IMG/VR virus record: IMGVR_UViG_2663763286_000016
Coordinates: 1 to 11,101 of that record
Reading direction: 5' to 3' (one strand)
From: a virus
Taxonomy: Duplodnaviria; Heunggongvirae; Uroviricota; Caudoviricetes
DNA: 11,101 nucleotides
Both the position numbers and the translations under genes were made by a program. Positions 518-9,444 of the stretch are shown in pieces (position 1 is the stretch's first letter; every line of letters starts with the position of its first letter). The notes under the pieces are model-generated. The model had not been told where the DNA came from, did not search any database, and worked only from the letters and a program-made list of their open reading frames with translations.

Positions 518-709
518 TTAAAGACCTGCCGGGATTTCGATATTATCCTGGTGAATAACTTTATCGACCGGGTAACAGTTACCGGGAATTTTCTGTTCGG
601 TTGCTGCAGTCATACTCTCCTGCATTGTCCTGTGAACACTGACTGCAATATCAACTGCCTCTCCGGAAACAAGAAAAACTGTCAGAACAAGTGCAAATGC
701 TGTATTCAT
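518..709 (-). CDS. Small hypothetical protein (about 63 aa) with a hydrophobic signal-peptide-like or transmembrane N-terminus
   Basis: Internal start of track ORF 518..763. ATG at 709..707 has an AAGGA Shine-Dalgarno 8 nt upstream and overlaps the stop of the upstream ORF in an ATGA arrangement. N-terminus MNTAFALVLTVFLVSGEA is hydrophobic. Start is uncertain; 718 and 763 are alternatives. Confidence 0.4.
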   Translation of the reverse strand: MNTAFALVLTVFLVSGEAVDIAVSVHRTMQESMTAATEQKIPGNCYPVDKVIHQDNIEIPAGL

Positions 710-894
710 TGCCAGCATCCTTTTTGTATCGGACGTAAACGGGCCAACATTGAAAGAATGCATATTTTATTTAATAGCTCCCGTTCGTGTTTTCTCTTGT
801 TAATGGCATCTTCAGTAAATACAGGGTTACTGATAGTGACACCAATTTCAAAACAACCTTCAGACGTATTAACGTTTGGTAATAACGTTTCCAT
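706..894 (-). CDS. Small hypothetical protein (62 aa), translationally coupled to neighbours
   Basis: ORF track 706..894. GAGGA 7 nt upstream of the ATG at 894, overlapping the end of the Rha gene; its stop overlaps the next start (ATGA). No family recognised. Confidence 0.4.
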   Translation of the reverse strand: METLLPNVNTSEGCFEIGVTISNPVFTEDAINKRKHERELLNKICILSMLARLRPIQKGCWQ

Positions 895-904
895 TATCGC
901 GTCC

Positions 905-1462
905 TCAACAATGAATTTTTAGTAATTGCTCCACAGTCATATTTTTAATTGCGCTCCGGTTTACAAGAGTCCAGCCTTGTTTCTCCAGATAAAACTGGAA
1001 GGTATCCAGGGTGCAGACCATTGCGCCGTCCGGAACGGTTTCAGTGAATTTGATATTGCCGTGTTCGTCGAGACGGATAACCAGGGTACGTCCGTCCCCG
1101 TGAATCATTTTGTCGGGAGACGGGGCGTTATTCTGGCGCAGTTCTTTCTCCATGCGATCGAACTCAGCGATGTAGGCTTCTTTAAATGCAGCGGCTTTTT
1201 TGCTGGTGAAGCCCATCACCAGGAAAACGAAGCCGTTTTTGGTGATTTGGTACATTGGGAGTTTGCGACCGGTTGAGTCGGTATATTCGCTCGACACAAA
1301 ATTGTGCTCAGTGAATTTTGCTGAACAGTCCAGATTGCGAATTTTATCCAACACTCGTTCGTGGCGTTTACCAAAGAACTCAGCGATCGCAATAGACGTA
1401 GTGACAGCGCGTCCATTTTCGATGGTTACGTCAGGGTGAGAAAGGGTATGGATAGTAGCCAT
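905..1462 (-). CDS. Phage regulatory protein, Rha family (antirepressor-like), about 185 aa
   Basis: N-terminus MATIHTLSHPDVTIENGRAVTTSIAIAEFFGKRHERVLDKIRNLD...YQITKNGFVFLVMGFTSKKAAAFKEAYIAEFDRME matches the Rha-domain pattern as remembered. ATG at 1462..1460 with GAGG 8 nt upstream. The longer track ORF (to 1759) would read through an intrinsic terminator, so the shorter start is preferred. Confidence 0.8.
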   Translation of the reverse strand: MATIHTLSHPDVTIENGRAVTTSIAIAEFFGKRHERVLDKIRNLDCSAKFTEHNFVSSEYTDSTGRKLPMYQITKNGFVFLVMGFTSKKAAAFKEAYIAEFDRMEKELRQNNAPSPDKMIHGDGRTLVIRLDEHGNIKFTETVPDGAMVCTLDTFQFYLEKQGWTLVNRSAIKNMTVEQLLKIHC

Positions 1463-1491
1463 GATGGCAGCCTCGATAGTCAGTTTAAATA

Positions 1492-1531
1492 ACTCACCAC
1501 CAAGGCTTTCCACGACCATAAGGGTGGTGAG
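1492..1531. promoter_or_regulatory. 9-bp perfect inverted repeat (CTCACCACC ... GGTGGTGAG, 22-bp spacer) just upstream of the Rha start
   Basis: Read directly from the sequence at 1492-1500 and 1523-1531. Function as operator or RNA hairpin is unknown. Confidence 0.3.
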
Positions 1532-1630
1532 ACGTACAGGGGTGGAAATACCGGTGACTACCGAAACCGGCCAGCCTTTCGGCTGCCCTGCACGCCCCAC
1601 CATAATCTGAATGTGGCTGTGCATTACGCA

Positions 1631-1655
1631 TAAAAAAACCGCATGAGCGCGGTTA
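1631..1655 (-). terminator. Rho-independent terminator for leftward transcription
   Basis: On the minus strand: AACCGC-GCTCAT-GCGGTT hairpin (5-6 bp GC-rich stem) followed by a run of seven T (plus-strand A run 1632-1638). Lies between the pL-like operon and the Rha gene. Confidence 0.6.
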
Positions 1656-2297
1656 TGCGCAGTAGTCATCATCGGGTTTCCACGCCCGGCACCCGCTTTA
1701 TGAGGTGCAGGTGCACTATAATTCCACCCGTTCTGGTTTTCAATAGCTACATTCAACATTTTCTCTTACCCTTCATCACCGAAGTGAACTTTGTTGATGC
1801 AGTGCCTGGTGCCTCCAGGTGACGTTAACCAGTTAACAATTAACGCCGGATACAGAGAATCCACCCATAACACTGTTTTTGGTTTTAACTGTTCCGCGTG
1901 CGCTGAGCCGCATTCACCGCATCACAAAATTCACTTTAAAAAGGGCGGACATCAGTTCATGGGCAAACAGATGCCGCCAAACGTCACCAGAAAATTGATA
2001 ACAGAGGGCGTTGCAGCGGGGTTGTCACTTAAGCGTATGGTCAACCTGACAACCCGGTGTCCTCAACGGGGAAGGAATAACCCCGCCATACTTACCGCCG
2101 CGCCATTTCGCGGAGTGCCACAACCGGAAGCGCACGGTCGACGAAAATTTAACGACAGGCTATCTATGAACCAGCTACCTCGCCGTGCGCTTTCGCGTTA
2201 TGGTCTGACTTTTCAGGGAAATATCCTTTCAGTAAACTGTCAGTGCCGGATGCTTACCCGTGTCCGGCGCACGCACTCTACCTCACCCGTGAATAAA

Positions 2298-2684
2298 TTA
2301 ATGATTAATTGATATTTTATAGGTGGATTCAACTTTCCCATCGGATGTGTGATGCTTTAAATCACAGGAATTAATACTGCTTGCTGTAAAGTGATTTTCA
2401 AGGGGGGCTATTCGAATCCCTTTCTTTTTCATTAACAGGCCAAATCCCTTATTAATGATGTCCATTAATTCCAGAAAGTATTTTTCATGTAAATCCTGGT
2501 TATCAGAGAGCTGCTTCTCTTCGTATAGCCCGATAAAGGCTCGGCGCACGTTACCGGATATATTATCGATGGTTTCTTTTTCTACGGTACTCAGGTCAGG
2601 AGTAGCCAATTGAGAACGAACTATATTCGCTGCCATTTCCTGGAATGGTATTGGTAAATCTTTAAATTCCATCGTCAACCTCAT
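2298..2684 (-). CDS. Hypothetical early-left protein (about 124-128 aa), AT-rich gene
   Basis: ORF track 2298..2684. ATG at 2684..2682 overlaps the upstream stop (TGATG); an alternative ATG at 2672 has a GAGG Shine-Dalgarno (MEFKDLPIPFQEM...). No family recognised. Confidence 0.55.
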   Translation of the reverse strand: MRLTMEFKDLPIPFQEMAANIVRSQLATPDLSTVEKETIDNISGNVRRAFIGLYEEKQLSDNQDLHEKYFLELMDIINKGFGLLMKKKGIRIAPLENHFTASSINSCDLKHHTSDGKVESTYKISINH

Positions 2685-2836
2685 CAGTCAGTGTTTCTGG
2701 CTAACCAGCGACGCGCGCCAGATTCGGTTTTAAGCGTTTTGCTTTTGGTATACGTCATTGCGGTGAACGTACCGTCCTGGTTTGGGAACACGCCGCACAC
2801 CAGAGATTCGTTGTTGCCAAGATCGATAGTATCCAT
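2684..2836 (-). CDS. Small hypothetical protein (50 aa), first gene of the pL-like operon
   Basis: Internal ATG at 2836..2834 of track ORF 2684..2890 (MDTIDLGNNESLVCGVFPNQDGTFTAMTYTKSKTLKTESGARRWLARNTD), GAGG 5 nt upstream. The track start at 2890 is a GTG that would sit only about 17 nt below the predicted transcription start. Confidence 0.45.
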   Translation of the reverse strand: MDTIDLGNNESLVCGVFPNQDGTFTAMTYTKSKTLKTESGARRWLARNTD

Positions 2837-2886
2837 GCTGACCTCATTTCCCCTTAACGCCGGGGTAGCGGAACTGTTTGCTGAGA

Positions 2887-2900
2887 ACACCGTGCGGTGT
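2887..2900. promoter_or_regulatory. 14-bp palindrome ACACCGTGCGGTGT in the leader of the pL-like transcript
   Basis: Perfect 6-bp inverted arms with a 2-nt centre, read directly. Could be a protein-binding site or an RNA hairpin. Confidence 0.3.
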
Positions 2901-2913
2901 CTTGGTGGAGATT

Positions 2914-2942
2914 AATTTAGAATAACCTAACAAATGTGGCAA
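2914..2942 (-). promoter_or_regulatory. pL-like sigma70 promoter directing leftward transcription
   Basis: On the minus strand: TTGCCA (plus 2942..2937), 17-bp spacer, TAAATT (plus 2919..2914). One TTAG-N6-CTAA palindrome overlaps the -10 and spacer, a second lies just upstream of the -35. Confidence 0.5.
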
Positions 2943-3004: not shown

Positions 3005-3412
3005 TTATTTTATTGATTTGTTTTTACGTGCTTTAAGCATTTCTTCGAAGAGTTTATTGAAATTCTCTACTCTTGCGCGCATTTCAGACAGTAAGGCTTC
3101 CTGCTCGGAGGAGGGAAGAGCATCGAATAATTCGATCAATTCTTTGTGGCTGGGAGTTAACTCGGTTTCCACATGAAGTTCTTGTGCTGGCACTGGTGCC
3201 TTGTCTTCGTCACCAAACATTAGCCATGTAGGCGAGCACTTCAGCGCATCAGCTAAAGCAAATAACCGCTTCCCGACCGGTTGGGTTTCGTCTCTTTCCC
3301 ATTGTGAAATTGTGACGTGAGCTACCCCAGCGAGGCGTGCAGCTTCTCGTTGTGTTAGGCGTAATTCTTTTCGTCGTGCCAGAACTCGCTGGCCTAGGGT
3401 TCTTGTATCCAT
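3005..3412 (-). CDS. Phage repressor, XRE-family helix-turn-helix, 135 aa, no S24 peptidase domain
   Basis: N-terminus LGQRVLARRKELRLTQREAARLAGVAHVTISQWERDETQP is a classic Cro/CI-type HTH. It is divergent from the cro-like gene. No Shine-Dalgarno before the ATG at 3412 and a TAGAAT -10 about 9 nt upstream suggest a near-leaderless transcript, as for lambda cI from pRM. Confidence 0.8.
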   Translation of the reverse strand: MDTRTLGQRVLARRKELRLTQREAARLAGVAHVTISQWERDETQPVGKRLFALADALKCSPTWLMFGDEDKAPVPAQELHVETELTPSHKELIELFDALPSSEQEALLSEMRARVENFNKLFEEMLKARKNKSIK

Positions 3413-3414
3413 AG

Positions 3415-3478
3415 TTAGGTAATTCTAATTTTTCTTGACTTAGGTATCCCGCGCACATTACCGTTAGGAATATCTAAC
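3415..3478. promoter_or_regulatory. OR-like region: two TTAG-N6-CTAA palindromes plus candidate divergent promoters
   Basis: TTAGGTAATTCTAA at 3415-3428 and GTTAGGAATATCTAAC at 3463-3478. Minus-strand TAGAAT -10 (plus 3427..3422) overlaps the first palindrome. Plus-strand TTGACT at 3435-3440 is a candidate -35; its -10 was not convincingly resolved. Confidence 0.45.
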
Positions 3479-3492
3479 AAGAGGGGGCTTTG

Positions 3493-3720
3493 ATGCTTAA
3501 AGTTGACGCAATTACTTTTTTTGGCAGCAAAACAAAACTTGCCAATGCCGCAGGAGTGAAACTGGCAAGTGTTGCTGCATGGGGGGAACTGGTTCCTGAA
3601 GGTCGCGCGATGCGCCTGCAAGAGGCATCCGGCGGGGAACTTCAGTACGACCCCAAAGTTTATGACGAATATCGTAAGGCAAAGCGGGCGGGGCGGTTGA
3701 ACAATGAAAATCACCCCTGA
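3493..3720 (+). CDS. Cro-like DNA-binding protein (YdaS-like), 75 aa
   Basis: ATG at 3493 with GAGGGGG 5 nt upstream (the track start at 3490 is TTG). Sequence LKVDAITFFGSKTKLANAAGVKLASVAAWGELVPEGRAMRLQEASGGEL fits the YdaS/Cro pattern as remembered. Position divergent from the repressor. Confidence 0.75.
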   Translation: MLKVDAITFFGSKTKLANAAGVKLASVAAWGELVPEGRAMRLQEASGGELQYDPKVYDEYRKAKRAGRLNNENHP

Positions 3721-4225
3721 ACAGGTTTGTGAGGCTCTGGATGCCTGGGTATGCCGACCAGGAATGACACAGGAGCAGGCGACGATATTAATCACGGAAG
3801 CATTCTGGGCTCTGAAAGAACGCCCGAACATCGATGTTCAACGCGTCACGTTTAATGATGGCGAGGTTGATCAACGGGCGTTGGGCGTTAACCGGGTGAA
3901 GATATTCGAACGCTGGAAAGCTATCGACACCAGGGATAAGCGGGAAAAATTCACGGCGCTGATTCCGGCAATTATGGAGGCTATCCGGATCAGCGATTTC
4001 AGGTTGTATTGTGAAATTACTGACGGAAAAAGCATTACGTACATGATCGCCGGGTTAAACAAAGAATATGGTGATGTGGTGGAGTCCGGGCTGCTTTTTG
4101 CGGATCCATCTGTTGTGGAACGTGAGACTGACGAGCTTATAGAAAAAGCTATTGCTTTCAAGCATGCGTATCGTCAGCAATACCAACAAAAAGCTGGATG
4201 GAATTATGAGCCTTCTTTTTGCTGA
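3704..4225 (+). CDS. YdaT-like / cII-position early regulator, 173 aa
   Basis: ORF track 3704..4225, overlapping the cro-like stop. Central ALIPAIMEAI region resembles YdaT-family proteins of the Rac prophage (recollection, moderate certainty). Confidence 0.65.
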   Translation: MKITPEQVCEALDAWVCRPGMTQEQATILITEAFWALKERPNIDVQRVTFNDGEVDQRALGVNRVKIFERWKAIDTRDKREKFTALIPAIMEAIRISDFRLYCEITDGKSITYMIAGLNKEYGDVVESGLLFADPSVVERETDELIEKAIAFKHAYRQQYQQKAGWNYEPSFC

Positions 4226-5045
4226 ACGCCCACTGGTTATAAACACACAGCTTGCGATGAAGATTGGCTTAAATGAAGCCATTGTGTTGCAGCAGTTGCA
4301 TTACTGGTTGAGAGATACCAGTTCCGGTATAGAATGTGACGGGGTTCGCTGGATTTATAACACAACAGAACAATGGCTGGAACAGTTCCCGTTCTGGTCA
4401 GAGTCAACGTTAAAACGCGCATTTGCAAGTCTGAAAACGCTGGGGCTTTTGCGTTGCGAAAAGCTCAACAAATCAAAGCGTGATATGACTAATTTTTACA
4501 CGATTAATTACGAGAGTGAGCTTTTAGATGGTGGCAAAGTGAGCGAATCCATCAGGTCAAAATGCGCCGCTCCATCAGGTCAAAATGACACGATGGAAGA
4601 GGTCAAAATGGCACGCTCCATTGGTTCAAAACGACCCAATGTCATCGGGTCAAAATGGCCTGATGATCTTACAGAGAATACAACAGAGATTACTACAGAG
4701 AATAAAAACACTTCTCGTCCGGAAGCTTCGCAACCGGACCCGCAGACGGCTGAACAGGATTTTTTAACCCGACACCCTGACGCGGTTGTGTTCAGTGCGA
4801 AAAAACGCCAGTGGGGAAGTCAGGAAGATTTGGCGTGCGCACAGTGGATCTGGGGACGAATCGTGAGTCTTTACGAGCAGGCTGCCAGCGATGATGGCGA
4901 GATCACGCGACCGAAAGAACCAAACTGGACCGCATGGGCCAATGACGTGCGCACAATGCGGATGCTGGATGGCAGAAGCCACAGACAAATTTGCGAAATG
5001 TTTGGTCGGGTACAGCGAGATCCATTCTGGGTAAAAACATCATGA
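4206..5045 (+). CDS. Replication initiation protein, lambda O-like, with the origin iterons inside the gene
   Basis: N-terminal winged-helix-like region (EAIVLQQLHYWLRDTSSGIECDGVRWIYNTTEQWLEQFPFWSESTLKRAFASLKTLGLL), then a linker that encodes the iteron array. Start uncertain: ATG at 4206 (MSLLF...) is preferred over the track start at 4152 to limit overlap with the upstream gene. Confidence 0.65.
   Translation: MSLLFAERPLVINTQLAMKIGLNEAIVLQQLHYWLRDTSSGIECDGVRWIYNTTEQWLEQFPFWSESTLKRAFASLKTLGLLRCEKLNKSKRDMTNFYTINYESELLDGGKVSESIRSKCAAPSGQNDTMEEVKMARSIGSKRPNVIGSKWPDDLTENTTEITTENKNTSRPEASQPDPQTAEQDFLTRHPDAVVFSAKKRQWGSQEDLACAQWIWGRIVSLYEQAASDDGEITRPKEPNWTAWANDVRTMRMLDGRSHRQICEMFGRVQRDPFWVKTS
4548..4657. 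repeat. Iteron array (about five direct repeats with core GGTCAAAATG, 22-25 bp spacing): probable replication origin
   Basis: Cores at 4555-4564, 4578-4587, 4601-4610, 4623-4633 (degenerate GGTTCAAAACG) and 4648-4657. The 17-mer TCCATCAGGTCAAAATG occurs identically at 4548 and 4571. Followed by an A/T-rich stretch with two TACAGAGAATA repeats (4670-4704). Confidence 0.7.
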
Positions 5046-5986: not shown

Positions 5987-7018
5987 ATGTCTATTAATCC
6001 TAAACTTAAGCGTATCGCGCGACGCTATCCAGCGTTATTCCAATATGAGTCCCCCTATATGGCAAGAAAATTAATAATATTCGGCAACGGTCTCGGTATG
6101 GCTTTAGATCCTGCTCACTTCTCCTTAGACAGAGCGTTGGAAGAAATTTGGCATCGCCCCAATTTTTTAAAAGATATCCACAAGCAACTTATCGAGCGTT
6201 GTCTTCAGCGGCAAGGTCCACCAGAAGGAGAACATGAGTTGGATACCCTTCACCAGGCTGTCACATATTGTAAAGCTCTTGCTCAAATTGGAGAGGGGAA
6301 CGTGCATTGGCTTACTGACGATGGACTAAACTTCCCCAAAATTACCGCCACTTATATTCACAAAGTTGCAACCAGGTTGCATAATTACGATAAAGGTTTG
6401 CCACAAAGATTCGAAAATGCGCTTGTGGAGTTTGTAAAGAACACACACTCACATATCGCGACATTAAACTATGACAAATTATTATACAATTCATTCATAG
6501 ATAATGATATATTCAACGGGTATGATGGGGTTTTAGTTGATGGGATGCTAAGCCACGGATTTTCCTCTGCAGCGCTCGAACGGAAATACAATCGTAGGTT
6601 TGGTTATTATTTGCACTTGCATGGTTCACCACTATTTATTAATCAGCATGAAAATGTTTTAAAACTTTCACGCTCACAACTTACTCTTGACATAGATGAA
6701 CCTAGTGAGCATATAGTGTTAACTCATATAAAAAGAAAACCGTCAGTTATAGCAGCATCTAATGTTCTTTCTACGTACTGGGATTATTTGCAGTTTGCAT
6801 TATTTGAATCAGAAGAAATAATATTGTTTGGTTACTCTGGTCTCGATATTCACCTTAACCTGCTTATTCGACCTTACCTAACCTCTAAGCCTTTAAGAGT
6901 AATTGAGTGGAGCGGTGCTGGTGAACAAAACGCTCGTGAGATATATTGGAAAAACCAGTTGAGACGGGAAGTTACTGTAATTAGGTTGGATAACATCACT
7001 GATTTTATTGATTGGTAG
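5987..7018 (+). CDS. SIR2-like protein (SIR2_2 / defence-type sirtuin fold), 343 aa; candidate NAD-consuming defence effector
   Basis: Glycine-rich N-terminal motif LIIFGNGLGMAL, TLNYD motif (residues 159-163), HLHGS (210-214) and a C-terminal LFGYSGLD motif, matching the spacing and residues of SIR2_2-family domains as in ThsA/DSR proteins (from memory). The gene looks markedly AT-rich. Start uncertain: 5987 or the in-frame ATG at 6059. Confidence 0.65.
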   Translation: MSINPKLKRIARRYPALFQYESPYMARKLIIFGNGLGMALDPAHFSLDRALEEIWHRPNFLKDIHKQLIERCLQRQGPPEGEHELDTLHQAVTYCKALAQIGEGNVHWLTDDGLNFPKITATYIHKVATRLHNYDKGLPQRFENALVEFVKNTHSHIATLNYDKLLYNSFIDNDIFNGYDGVLVDGMLSHGFSSAALERKYNRRFGYYLHLHGSPLFINQHENVLKLSRSQLTLDIDEPSEHIVLTHIKRKPSVIAASNVLSTYWDYLQFALFESEEIILFGYSGLDIHLNLLIRPYLTSKPLRVIEWSGAGEQNAREIYWKNQLRREVTVIRLDNITDFIDW

Positions 7019-7178: not shown

Positions 7179-7279
7179 TTTTATATTGGCGAGGTGACGG
7201 GAGTTAAGTAGAATTGCTGCGGGTGCTTGAGGCTATCTGCCTCAGGCATGAACACCAAAAGGCAGATAGAGAAAAGCCC

Positions 7280-7342
7280 CAGTTAACATTACGCGTCCTG
7301 CAAGACGCTTAACATTAATCTGAGGCCATATCTATGCGACAC
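7280..7342 (-). ncRNA. Putative Sok-like antisense RNA (hypothetical; extent approximate)
   Basis: Candidate minus-strand promoter: TTGACC (plus 7376..7371), 16-bp spacer, GCTAAT (plus 7354..7349). This would start an antisense transcript covering the start of the short leader ORF, as in hok/sok loci. No clear terminator was identified. Confidence 0.2.
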
Positions 7343-7393
7343 ATAGAGATTAGCCTCTTACGGACCAAAAGGTCAAGGAGAAGCAGGCTATGA
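7334..7393 (+). CDS. Short leader ORF (19 aa) coupled to hok; mok-like by position
   Basis: ATG at 7334 sits inside a hairpin (TCTATG cgaca CATAGA). The TGA at 7391-7393 overlaps the hok ATG at 7390-7392. Confidence 0.3.
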   Translation: MRHIEISLLRTKRSRRSRL

Positions 7394-7545
7394 AGCAGCA
7401 AAAGGCGATGTTAATCGCCCTGATCGTCATCTGTTTAACCGTCATAGTGACGGCACTGGTAACGAGGAAAGACCTCTGCGAGGTACGAATCCGAACCGGC
7501 CAGACGGAGGTCGCTGTCTTCACAGCTTACGAACCTGAGGAGTAA
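7390..7545 (+). CDS. hokD: Hok/Gef-family type I toxin, 51 aa (matches HokD/RelF as remembered)
   Basis: Hand translation MKQQKAMLIALIVICLTVIVTALVTRKDLCEVRIRTGQTEVAVFTAYEPEE. AAGGAG 9 nt upstream. Upstream leader is rich in long-range complementary segments. Confidence 0.88.
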   Translation: MKQQKAMLIALIVICLTVIVTALVTRKDLCEVRIRTGQTEVAVFTAYEPEE

Positions 7546-7709: not shown

Positions 7710-8360
7710 ATGAATGAAAATCAGTTAGCTCCTTGTTGGGAATTTCAACCTTATCTTGCTGAAAACTATGTTCGCCACTTGTTGGCGGAGATCGCTAACG
7801 TACTTGAGCAGCTGTACTATCATAAGCACGCATTAGACAGCAACTGGTCTGAAGGTGTAAGGGCTTATGATTGGGTCAGAAATCATCTTATTCAAAATGA
7901 AGATGCAATTCCTGGCCTTGAGATGATTTCCAAGGGGTTGGACTATGTAGTTGCTTTAAATAAAGTTCCGCTACAATTTACCAAAGATTGCATTAATAAC
8001 CCCAAAAAGAAACATCGTCTGCGTCGAAATAAAGTAGAGTATGAGCAGCTCTCATTGTTTGGTGATGTTGAGGCTGAGCAAGATATTACATGGCGAGTCA
8101 TAGCTGAGCCTTTTTTATCCGAAGAGGGCGATGGTGAATTAGAGTCCACACTGCCTCGTTGGGAGGTAGCTCTTGTTGGATTTAATACTTATGGTGCTCA
8201 GATTAGTATAGTTTCTCATCAATCTACAGCATCGATGCCGCTTATGCCTCTTGATTATAACACACTCCCTGACGAAGCGGAGATTAATAAGGTGCCTCTT
8301 CGTCGGCGTACGAAGGATAAAGATTTGGATGTGAGCAGTGATGGAACATCAGGTGAATAA
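7710..8360 (+). CDS. Hypothetical protein, 216 aa, first gene of a two-gene module; contains a QLSLF pentapeptide
   Basis: ORF track 7710..8360. No family recognised. Residues 113-117 are QLSLF, flanked by a basic run (NPKKKHRLRRNK) and an acidic run. The 3' end overlaps the start of the next gene. Confidence 0.65.
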   Translation: MNENQLAPCWEFQPYLAENYVRHLLAEIANVLEQLYYHKHALDSNWSEGVRAYDWVRNHLIQNEDAIPGLEMISKGLDYVVALNKVPLQFTKDCINNPKKKHRLRRNKVEYEQLSLFGDVEAEQDITWRVIAEPFLSEEGDGELESTLPRWEVALVGFNTYGAQISIVSHQSTASMPLMPLDYNTLPDEAEINKVPLRRRTKDKDLDVSSDGTSGE

Positions 8361-9444
8361 CTTCACTGAGTATCGGGGTGATAAGCTCAAACTAGCGAGA
8401 ATGGCTGTTGGGCTTTCTTGTGAAGAGTTAGCCGAAAAAATTGGCAAGACAAAGCAATTCGTTAGCAAACTGGAGAAGGGGTGCAGGCCATCGGAGCAAT
8501 GTCTTGAGTTAATATCTTCAGCGCTTATGATTAAGTCCAGTTTTCTTTTTACTGAACGAAAATACGCTCTGGAAAGTGATGTCTGCCATTTTCGGAGTAA
8601 GAAGTCCAGGACTCAAACGCTGACTAATAGTGTATTGGCCAGGGCTGAGATTCTTAATATTATAATTTCTGCTGTTGAAGGTGAAATCGAATTTCCTGAC
8701 GTTAACATACCGGAGCACCCAGGGGCTGAATTACTTACTCCGAATGATATTGAGCGAGTGGCAGAAGATTGTCGCCGTGCCTGGAATTTAGGTCTTGGCC
8801 CTATATCATCAATGGTTAAATTGGCGGAGAGTTTAGGGGTAATCGTTGCGCATGTTACGGGAGTCGATGATCGTGTTGATGCTTTTACTGTTCACAATAA
8901 CAGGCCTGTTATCATCAGGAACAATGTTAAAAAAAGCATATGTAGATTTCGCTCTGATTTAGGTCATGAATTAGGGCATTTAGTAATGCATGAGGGCATA
9001 ACGACAGGTGATAAACTTACGGAATCACAAGCCGATCACTTTTCGAGCGCCTTATTAGTTCCCAGGTTATCTTTCATTAAAGAATTTCCACGAATACGAG
9101 GTAAGCAATTCGACTGGAATGCTCTGGTTGAATTTAAACTTAGATGGAAAATCAGCCTTAAAATGTGTATTTATCGAGCCAGCGCATTAGGCTTATTGAC
9201 CCAGGAACAGGCAAGAACTGGCTATATGCATCTTAATTCCAGAGGGTATACGAGAGTTGAACCTGGTGATGAACTTTTGCGCCCTGAAGAACCCGGCATG
9301 CTGGCCGAGGCGATTGAAATGCTGGATGATGCAACCTGGCTAAGAATTCTTATGAAAACTGGCTTGAGCCAAGATTTAATTCGTGAGTTGTTCTCCATCA
9401 ACAGACCTATTACAAATCCAAGAAATATTTTCCAGATTGTTTGA
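8341..9444 (+). CDS. Fusion of XRE-family HTH and ImmA/IrrE-type zinc metallopeptidase (COG2856-like), about 367 aa
   Basis: N-terminal HTH (LKLARMAVGLSCEELAEKIGKTKQFVSKLEKG) and an HEXXH motif (HELGH, residues 210-214, around nt 8965-8979). ATG at 8341; the track start at 8338 is GTG. Confidence 0.8.
   Translation: MEHQVNNFTEYRGDKLKLARMAVGLSCEELAEKIGKTKQFVSKLEKGCRPSEQCLELISSALMIKSSFLFTERKYALESDVCHFRSKKSRTQTLTNSVLARAEILNIIISAVEGEIEFPDVNIPEHPGAELLTPNDIERVAEDCRRAWNLGLGPISSMVKLAESLGVIVAHVTGVDDRVDAFTVHNNRPVIIRNNVKKSICRFRSDLGHELGHLVMHEGITTGDKLTESQADHFSSALLVPRLSFIKEFPRIRGKQFDWNALVEFKLRWKISLKMCIYRASALGLLTQEQARTGYMHLNSRGYTRVEPGDELLRPEEPGMLAEAIEMLDDATWLRILMKTGLSQDLIRELFSINRPITNPRNIFQIV

Follow-up and report, generated by a model that had tools for sequence, protein, structure and literature searches.

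Two small genes, ydfA and a modular 124-codon gene, at the head of a probable dicBF-type early-left operon in a Qin/Rac-like lambdoid prophage of Escherichia

Gene content and order of the locus

We analysed positions 2298-2907 of a viral DNA stretch of 11,101 nucleotides (the window, by which we mean this stretch at its full length). Two ORFs lie there on the minus strand: one at 2684-2836, encoding 50 aa from its ATG, and one at 2298-2684, encoding 128 aa from its first ATG. Read along this strand, the locus comprises a DicA-like repressor gene, a promoter, ydfA (the first ORF), a gene of 124 aa (the second ORF, with the start codon discussed below), an untranslated region, DicF, an inserted module, DicB, and YdfD. 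The region we studied is thus the first ~600 nt of an operon that runs on to these distal elements. From the 124-aa gene to dicF there is an untranslated region of 305 nt (1993-2297, minus strand), and its similarity to the ydfC-dicF region of K-12 begins 10 nt past the stop codon of the 124-aa gene. The putative small RNA DicF (1943-1992, minus strand) is matched by the Rfam model RF00039 with 43.5 bits (E 7.4e-8), which is below the gathering score of 48. It agrees exactly with K-12 DicF in the 5' part and departs from it in the terminator stem; aligned as DNA with dicF of K-12 and the region upstream of it, the locus is ~98% identical except in the terminator loop. Next comes an inserted antirepressor module, isrK/C4/Ash-Rha, which separates dicF from dicB. 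The latter (706-894, minus strand, 62 aa) is a distal gene of the same operon, and beyond it YdfD matches DUF1482 at E 1.1e-23.

The locus has the gene order and orientation of the dicBF operon of the Qin prophage of K-12 (dicA/dicBp/ydfA-ydfB-ydfC-dicF-dicB-ydfD). The likeness extends to TTAG-N6-CTAA operators, an identical ydfA leader, YdfA (90% identity), DicB (89%), and the untranslated region (~98%). The two operons differ in the repressor (57% identity), in the operator spacers, and in the isrK/C4/Ash-Rha insert and diverged DicF terminator stem found here. They also differ in what follows ydfA: K-12 has ydfB (42 aa) and ydfC (72 aa), whereas the window has a single unrelated gene of 124 aa that is absent from K-12. 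In relatives, the annotated order is repressor, ydfA, one or several variable genes, dicF, dicB, ydfD, exonuclease, xis, and int. This synteny is annotated in E. coli RM8082, 602687, K-12, A25, O157:H7, and NCCP15648, and the phage records mEp460_ev081 and Tritos have the same gene order. The closest genomes are those of E. coli A25 (99.2% nucleotide identity over the second gene) and Escherichia albertii NBRC 107761 (98% amino-acid identity), and a scan of species-representative genomes returned a single locus, in Escherichia albertii.

The co-occurrence of a DicA-like repressor, ydfA, the ~98% K-12-like untranslated region, a putative DicF, DicB, and YdfD points to an operon of the dicBF type. 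We therefore consider it very probable that positions 2298-2907 form the promoter-proximal end of an early-left operon of this type in a Qin/Rac-like lambdoid prophage of Escherichia. A preliminary description of this DNA had presented it as a two-gene operon of unknown genes, which does not hold: the region is the head of a longer dicBF operon, and its first gene is ydfA.

Repressor, promoter, and operators

The repressor gene (3005-3412, minus strand) lies directly upstream of the leftward promoter. It encodes a protein of 135 aa with a helix-turn-helix domain (Pfam HTH_3, E 1.2e-14) that aligns collinearly and at full length with K-12 DicA. Divergent from it is a gene for a DicC/Cro-like regulator (3490-3720, plus strand; Pfam P22_Cro, E 2e-13), labelled Cro/CI family or DicC in related genomes. 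A YdaT-family gene comes after this P22_Cro/DicC-type gene. On the other side, 112 nt of intergenic DNA separate the repressor gene from the first ORF (2684-2836/2890). A consensus scan found one leftward promoter-like site here, with a score of 9/12. This putative dicBp-like sigma-70 promoter (2914-2942, minus strand) has a -35 box TTGCCA at 2942-2937, a spacer of 17 nt, and a -10 box TAAATT at 2919-2914, which would place the transcription start near 2906. Its position aligns with the dicB promoter region of K-12, which has a TTAG..CTAA motif at the same place.

The 11.1-kb window contains exactly four copies of the motif TTAG-N6-CTAA, when 0.14 are expected, and none of 200 shuffled sequences reached four. 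All four copies sit at the two promoters. One (2917-2930) covers the spacer and the -10 box of the leftward promoter. Another (2953-2966) is the core of a distal operator just upstream of the -35 box, a perfect 20-bp palindrome (2949-2968, TTGTTAGaccaaTCTAACAA) with zero mismatches to TGTTAG-N6-CTAACA. The other two (3415-3428 and 3464-3477) are located in the gap that separates the repressor gene from the divergent cro-like gene. Upstream of the shared leader, the DNA of the promoter and operators differs from that of K-12, as the operator spacers do. Since the repressor is just 57% identical to DicA, it is the repeated motif that points to these sites as the ones it would occupy.

These data uphold two elements of the preliminary description: a leftward promoter with embedded operators, namely the sigma-70-like site and the copies at 2917-2930 and 2953-2966, and the placement of the two genes where immediate-early left genes are found, in a repressor-controlled leftward (PL-like) transcription unit. 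By homology to K-12, early-left transcription controlled by the repressor is very likely here as well. In K-12, both repression by DicA and co-transcription of ydfA through dicF and dicB have been shown (bioRxiv 10.1101/2023.04.14.536235; PMC5069750). Published work on the K-12 dicBp reports that expression increases 22-fold upon deletion of dicA and 165-fold with the Qin antirepressor Rem, and that the promoter switches on spontaneously in ~1% of cells, a switch that depends on DicC. The start site, the repression, and the co-transcription that we describe for the present locus are predictions drawn from this homology.

ydfA and its leader

The first gene, ydfA (2684-2836, minus strand), is preceded by a GAGG site at 2842-2845. 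The preliminary description had assigned its product to no known family, which has to be revised: it matches the full Pfam model DUF1391 (E 4.8e-28, 97 bits, for a curated cut-off of 27.3). This family includes YdfA of Qin and YdaF of Rac, is confined to prophages of Enterobacteriaceae, and is itself without known function. The protein shares with it the 13 residues that are invariant across Escherichia, Salmonella, and Cronobacter. The dN/dS of ydfA is 0.16, and the AlphaFold model (pLDDT 83) is a folded beta-beta-beta-alpha. Both genes had been described as AT-rich; this stands for the second (37.6% GC) and fails for ydfA (50.3% GC), given the 45.9% GC of the window.

The searches with YdfA returned little else. 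A profile search of the PDB gave just a match of 19 residues (E 0.04) to the phage head decoration protein D, too short to make the two proteins relatives; it probably explains why some phage records carry a stray label of 'head-DNA stabilization protein D'. A structure search of BFVD gave no match. The name ydfA is also used for a gene of IncI plasmids (PMC12111858), where it belongs to an ibfA-ydeA-ydfA transcriptional unit; judging from this context, only the name seems to be shared. Some gene callers propose a longer YdfA isoform of 68-77 aa. We rejected it, given the one-base deletions in the leader of several loci and the location of the GAGG 5 nt before the 50-aa start. The same deletions indicate that the leader is non-coding.

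Two elements of the leader noted in the preliminary description, a 14-bp palindrome and a CCCC-N8-GGGG element, are indeed present. The palindrome (2887-2900, minus strand) corresponds to hairpin 1, ACACCG-CA-CGGTGT (ACACCGCACGGTGT), a 14-bp inverted repeat ~7-20 nt into the predicted transcript. The other element (2850-2865, minus strand) corresponds to hairpin 2, CCCC-GGCGTTAA-GGGG (CCCCGGCGTTAAGGGG), just upstream of the ribosome-binding site of ydfA. The leader is identical to that of K-12 from ACACCGCACGG to the ATG. Its last ~40 nt (GTTCCGCTACCCC-GGCGTTAA-GGGGAAATGAGGTCAGCATG) were found in all 35 leader variants and adjoin at least four different upstream contexts. Hairpin 2 is present in every one of these variants, and the few changes in its stem (CCCT/GGGG, ACCC/GGGT) keep the pairing. 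In a second type of leader, hairpin 1 is replaced by a different sequence with a stem at the same place (GCAC-AACG-GTGC), which could be read as a weak sign of covariation. By folding energy alone, the hairpins do not stand out statistically: the leader is no more stable than its shuffled versions (z = +0.72, with 155 of 200 shuffles folding at least as well). Nor is the leader more conserved than the neighbouring coding DNA of ydfA. The conservation of the hairpins is suggestive of some function, for instance as a 5' stabilising stem, and we make no claim of a regulatory RNA.

The second gene starts at a conserved ATG and is under purifying selection

The preliminary description had the second gene overlap ydfA by a TGATG. 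These bases are present at 2682-2686, where they link the stop codon of the first ORF with an ATG at 2684, yet this ATG is not the conserved start. We compared 84 copies of the gene, which are those of the fetched related loci and that of the window. The gene follows ydfA in 62 of them, with the same ...CTGATGAGGTTGACGATG junction, and ydfC in the other 22, where the junction is ...TAACCAACGAGGCTAATAATG. In the ydfC-type loci there is an in-frame TAA 18 nt upstream of the ATG of MEFKDLP, and the GAGG recurs at an unchanged distance. Every database homologue of the protein begins with MEFKDLP, and a distant relative in another context starts with MQFKDLP behind a GGAGG. The homologues and the in-frame TAA both place the conserved start at the ATG at 2672 and lead us to discard the one at 2684. 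The gene thus spans 2298-2672 (minus strand, 124 aa), with its GAGG site at 2679-2682, and is separated from the stop of ydfA by 11 nt. The TGATG arises incidentally, where the ydfA stop runs into this GAGG site. Because the GAGG begins at the stop codon of ydfA, close translational coupling of the two genes without overlapping starts is plausible.

The second gene takes the place of ydfB-ydfC in K-12. We considered that its product might be a fused or diverged form of YdfB and YdfC, and dismissed this: the sequences are unrelated, and both sets of genes coexist in some loci. Frame conservation in related prophages had been set beforehand as the point on which the two genes could fall. Each of the 83 related loci that have a full copy keeps the 124-codon frame intact, and the dN/dS of the gene is 0.13-0.18, evenly along its length. 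This purifying selection and the intact frames show that both ORFs are genuine genes. The second gene is covered to at least 80% in 723 of the 5426 complete E. coli genomes (about 13%), and 1357 have part of it; relatives are also encoded on 494 viral contigs.

A conserved N-terminal module with variable C-termini

The product of the second gene belongs to phrog_6937 (E 8.9e-76 over all 124 residues), a family that PHROG labels as of unknown function. Three other PHROG families (1363, 2151, and 9419) match only its N-terminal ~55-64 residues, none reaching beyond residue 64, whereas phrog_6937 matches end to end; these three are likewise catalogued with no function. This reflects a conserved N-terminal module, residues 1-53 (2514-2672, minus strand), that is common to proteins with unrelated C-termini. 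Among the relatives retrieved, the C-termini behind the module are of at least seven unrelated types, for total lengths of 101-208 aa. Its invariant residues are M1, K4, D5, L6, P7, Q11, A14, L22, K32, V42, R43, F46, and Y50. Between families, the dS of the module is 0.9-1.2, against a dN of 0.32-0.38 (about 0.36). With dS near 1 while dN stays low, the module is conserved as a protein and is not a mere recombination linker. Four such alleles, of 101 aa in O157:H7, 121 aa in mEp460_ev081, 133 aa in NCCP15648, and 208 aa in a further locus, likewise follow ydfA or ydfC in this slot. One distant family member sits in a different prophage context. Our search of the literature found no description of this shared module with a variable C-terminus.

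The 124-aa gene is probably one allele of an exchangeable cassette. It could belong to a polymorphic effector family of Qin/Rac-type prophages, in which the constant two-helix module (MEFKDLP...NVRxAFxGLY) would dock a common partner (YdfA, for example, or a protein of the host) and the interchangeable C-terminal parts would supply specificity towards different host defence systems or competing phages. We put this adaptor-effector scenario forward as a tentative and rather unlikely hypothesis.

One point speaks against it: recombination breakpoints within the gene, and not such a design, could in part account for a shared N-terminus followed by variable C-termini.

Searches for the function of the two proteins

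Homology searches and structure prediction, which the preliminary description had proposed for both proteins, placed YdfA in DUF1391 and support a specific biochemical function for neither. The 124-aa protein has no Pfam, NCBIfam, or PADLOC family, and neither protein matches a known toxin, antitoxin, or defence model (PADLOC at E <= 0.1, Pfam, NCBIfam). A word-indexed search with the 124-aa protein gave 226 homologues, all 'hypothetical'. phmmer, run exhaustively against 1.84 billion representatives, gave 38 clusters, essentially from Escherichia and Salmonella, of which none was annotated; the family is narrow. The profile search with the N-terminal module returned mostly fragments, and no match had a Pfam domain. 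The Pfam scan of 14 diverse members of the family produced just chance-level single matches, and the best hit of the PDB profile search had an E of 0.53. AlphaFold modelled the 124-aa protein poorly (pLDDT 55), as three helices over residues 8-22, 32-53, and 59-83 plus a disordered tail; Foldseek found no viral model similar to this one at E <= 0.001.

The two proteins, YdfA and the 124-aa protein, have pIs of 6.1 and 5.9 and acidic N-termini (MDTIDLGNNE and MEFKDLP). Neither has a transmembrane segment: the maximal Kyte-Doolittle averages over 19 residues are 0.37 and 0.51, for a usual threshold of ~1.6. Both are thus predicted to be soluble, near-neutral, and free of transmembrane segments, which makes N-like, SieB-like, or holin-like roles less likely. 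The preliminary description had seen no resemblance to lambda N, and we agree: the proteins are not arginine-rich, have pIs of about 6, and match no N family, and YdfA is modelled as a folded protein.

Alternative explanations for the two genes

Could these genes, or the leader, nevertheless serve antitermination? YdfA, the leader hairpins, or both would then act like N/nut of lambda or put of HK022, so that the polymerase reads through the DicF terminator to dicB, exonuclease, xis, and int. The operon is long and has the intrinsic terminator of DicF inside (PMC5069750), and neither the prophages nor the phages mEp460_ev081 and Tritos have an N-like gene in the interval from the repressor to ydfA. 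Furthermore, ydfA and the last ~40 nt of the leader, hairpin 2 included, are constant beside at least four types of repressor and promoter. However, several loci have other genes between the promoter and these 40 nt, and the leader, whose conservation does not exceed that of the adjacent ydfA coding DNA and whose fold is no better than shuffled, has no boxA/boxB-like pair beyond a 'CGCT'. YdfA lacks an arginine-rich motif, has a pI of 6.1, and is modelled as a compact folded domain, unlike a disordered N-like peptide; Pfam and PHROG gave no antiterminator match. We regard antitermination as very unlikely. The genes might also be a mere translated spacer, in which ribosome traffic shields the long transcript from Rho and RNases to the benefit of DicF and DicB, the protein sequences being unimportant. 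The slot tolerates entirely different genes, and work on K-12 showed that the upstream part of the transcript affects its processing and stability and that the abundance of the ydfA RNA depends on RNase E and RNase III (bioRxiv 10.1101/2023.04.14.536235). Such a role is hard to reconcile with the strong purifying selection on the amino-acid sequences of both genes (dN/dS 0.13-0.18), with an N-terminal module kept as a protein at dS above 1, and with the 13 invariant residues of YdfA across three genera, and we find it highly improbable.

A toxin-antitoxin or abortive-infection pair, with two small coupled genes of which one is toxic and the other neutralises it, would fit the size of the genes, the 11 nt between them, their accessory position in a prophage, and the presence of HigB/HigA directly beside ydfA in other loci. 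Yet PADLOC, Pfam, and NCBIfam gave no toxin or antitoxin family. The partners are also not constant: ydfA pairs freely with ydfB, with the 124-aa gene, or with the alleles of 101, 133, and 208 aa, and the 124-aa gene is also found after ydfC. In K-12, where published work calls ydfA, ydfB, and ydfC 'small proteins of unknown function', cells in which the operon was induced without dicF and dicB, ydfABC being present, had normal growth and morphology (PMC5069750). YdfABC are therefore not toxic at that level of expression, a result that covers ydfA, ydfB, and ydfC and not the 124-aa gene. Altogether, we judge a toxin-antitoxin or abortive-infection pair to be extremely unlikely.

Discussion

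The operon is of a known type, the dicBF or PL-like early-left operon of Qin-type lambdoid prophages, and the region is largely ordinary. Its analogy with the early-left (PL) operon of lambda and P22 (N, ral, sieB, cIII, kil, gam) was made previously for dicBF (bioRxiv 10.1101/2023.04.14.536235). In both, a promoter controlled by the repressor lies beside its gene and drives transcription away from the immunity region, and small accessory host-modulating genes are followed by recombination, xis, and int genes. In contrast to lambda and P22, the locus has neither an N homologue nor a recognisable nut site, and its first gene is ydfA. The cell-division inhibitors also differ: they are DicF and DicB in the dicBF type and Kil in lambda.

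By extension from the published work on K-12, the repressor bound to its operators would hold the promoter off in the lysogen. Upon loss of repression, by an antirepressor, a spontaneous switch to the Cro-like state, or stress, the operon would be transcribed as one polycistronic RNA, which RNase E and RNase III would then cut to free DicF. In this dicBF-type operon, YdfA and the 124-aa protein would be soluble cytoplasmic accessory early proteins, dispensable for phage growth and themselves non-toxic. The host-takeover and phage-exclusion activities of the K-12 operon map to DicF and DicB (PMC5069750, PMC6832061), and DicB excludes phages that use ManXYZ (PMC6832061).

The main value of this analysis is a correct label: the region is the start of a dicBF operon, with its known products DicF and DicB that block cell division and exclude other phages, and not a new two-gene system. 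It also draws attention to two genes. ydfA is the near-universal first gene of dicBF-type operons and still has no assigned function. The modular family of the 124-aa gene is present in some form in about a quarter of the complete genomes of E. coli and is apparently unstudied. Were the adaptor-effector scenario true, the slot behind ydfA would be a hotspot of the arms race, and if the variable C-termini are specificity domains, it would be a compact source of factors involved in phage-host or phage-phage conflict.

DicF and the untranslated region upstream of it

The operon probably controlled by the DicA-like repressor carries a probable copy of DicF at 1943-1992 (-), whose 5' targeting part is unchanged relative to that of E. 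coli K-12. This copy scores 43.5 bits against an Rfam gathering score of 48; the shortfall stems from a terminator stem-loop unlike that of K-12. Directly downstream, at 1790-1931 (-), we observed a sub-threshold match to the STnc100 sRNA family (32.3 bits for a gathering score of 47, E 6.7e-5).

RefSeq annotates a 73-aa 'hypothetical protein' at 4124-4345 (+) of a related locus (L001, in its own coordinates), roughly equivalent to 2087-2308 (+) in the window, and similar calls are annotated in other genomes. This ORF runs antisense to the untranslated stretch that separates the 124-aa gene from dicF (1993-2297, -) and may be a spurious call, given its overlap with sequence that is conserved as DicF precursor. 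The 124-aa gene itself (2298-2672, -) belongs to the MEFKDLP family, in which several otherwise unrelated C-termini close with a similar short motif (..KISINH, ..VSIYTN, ..IKISF, ..DISMSP); in the window, this end of the gene is at 2298-2330 (-). The motif might form a strand common to these proteins or serve as a recognition tag.

Possible defence cargo and a hok/sok locus

On the right-hand side of the replication genes, 5987-7018 (+) and 7710-9444 (+) may be defence cargo. Among the products encoded there are a 343-aa protein with a SIR2_2 domain (E 1e-5) and a 368-aa protein with HTH and Peptidase_M78/IrrE domains, whose gene overlaps a 216-aa ORF for which no family was found. E. coli 602687 has an annotated SIR2-family gene in this same position. 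We also observed a complete hok/sok toxin-antitoxin locus at 7221-7545 (+), composed of the sok RNA (7221-7392, +; 107.5 bits) and the 51-aa Hok (7390-7545, +; Pfam E 1.2e-23).

An antirepressor module between dicF and dicB

Pfam domains and RNA family matches identify an immI-like antirepressor module at 905-1759 (-), inserted within the repressor-controlled operon with dicF on one side and dicB on the other. The same insertion is annotated in E. coli NCCP15648, together with a partial duplicate of dicB. The module includes two RNAs, at 1520-1607 and 1632-1708 (-), which are a C4 antisense RNA (79.3 bits) and an isrK-like RNA (63.6 bits), as well as an ORF of 284 aa in which Pfam recognises the Phage_ASH and Phage_pRha domains. 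The Phage_ASH match covers residues 14-108 of this ORF, i.e., 1436-1720 (-), and shares its DNA with both RNA matches: either the true start of the ORF is further downstream, or the family model partly represents translated RNA genes. The position of the module could create a positive feedback, in which the antirepressor is controlled by the very repressor that it may antagonise.
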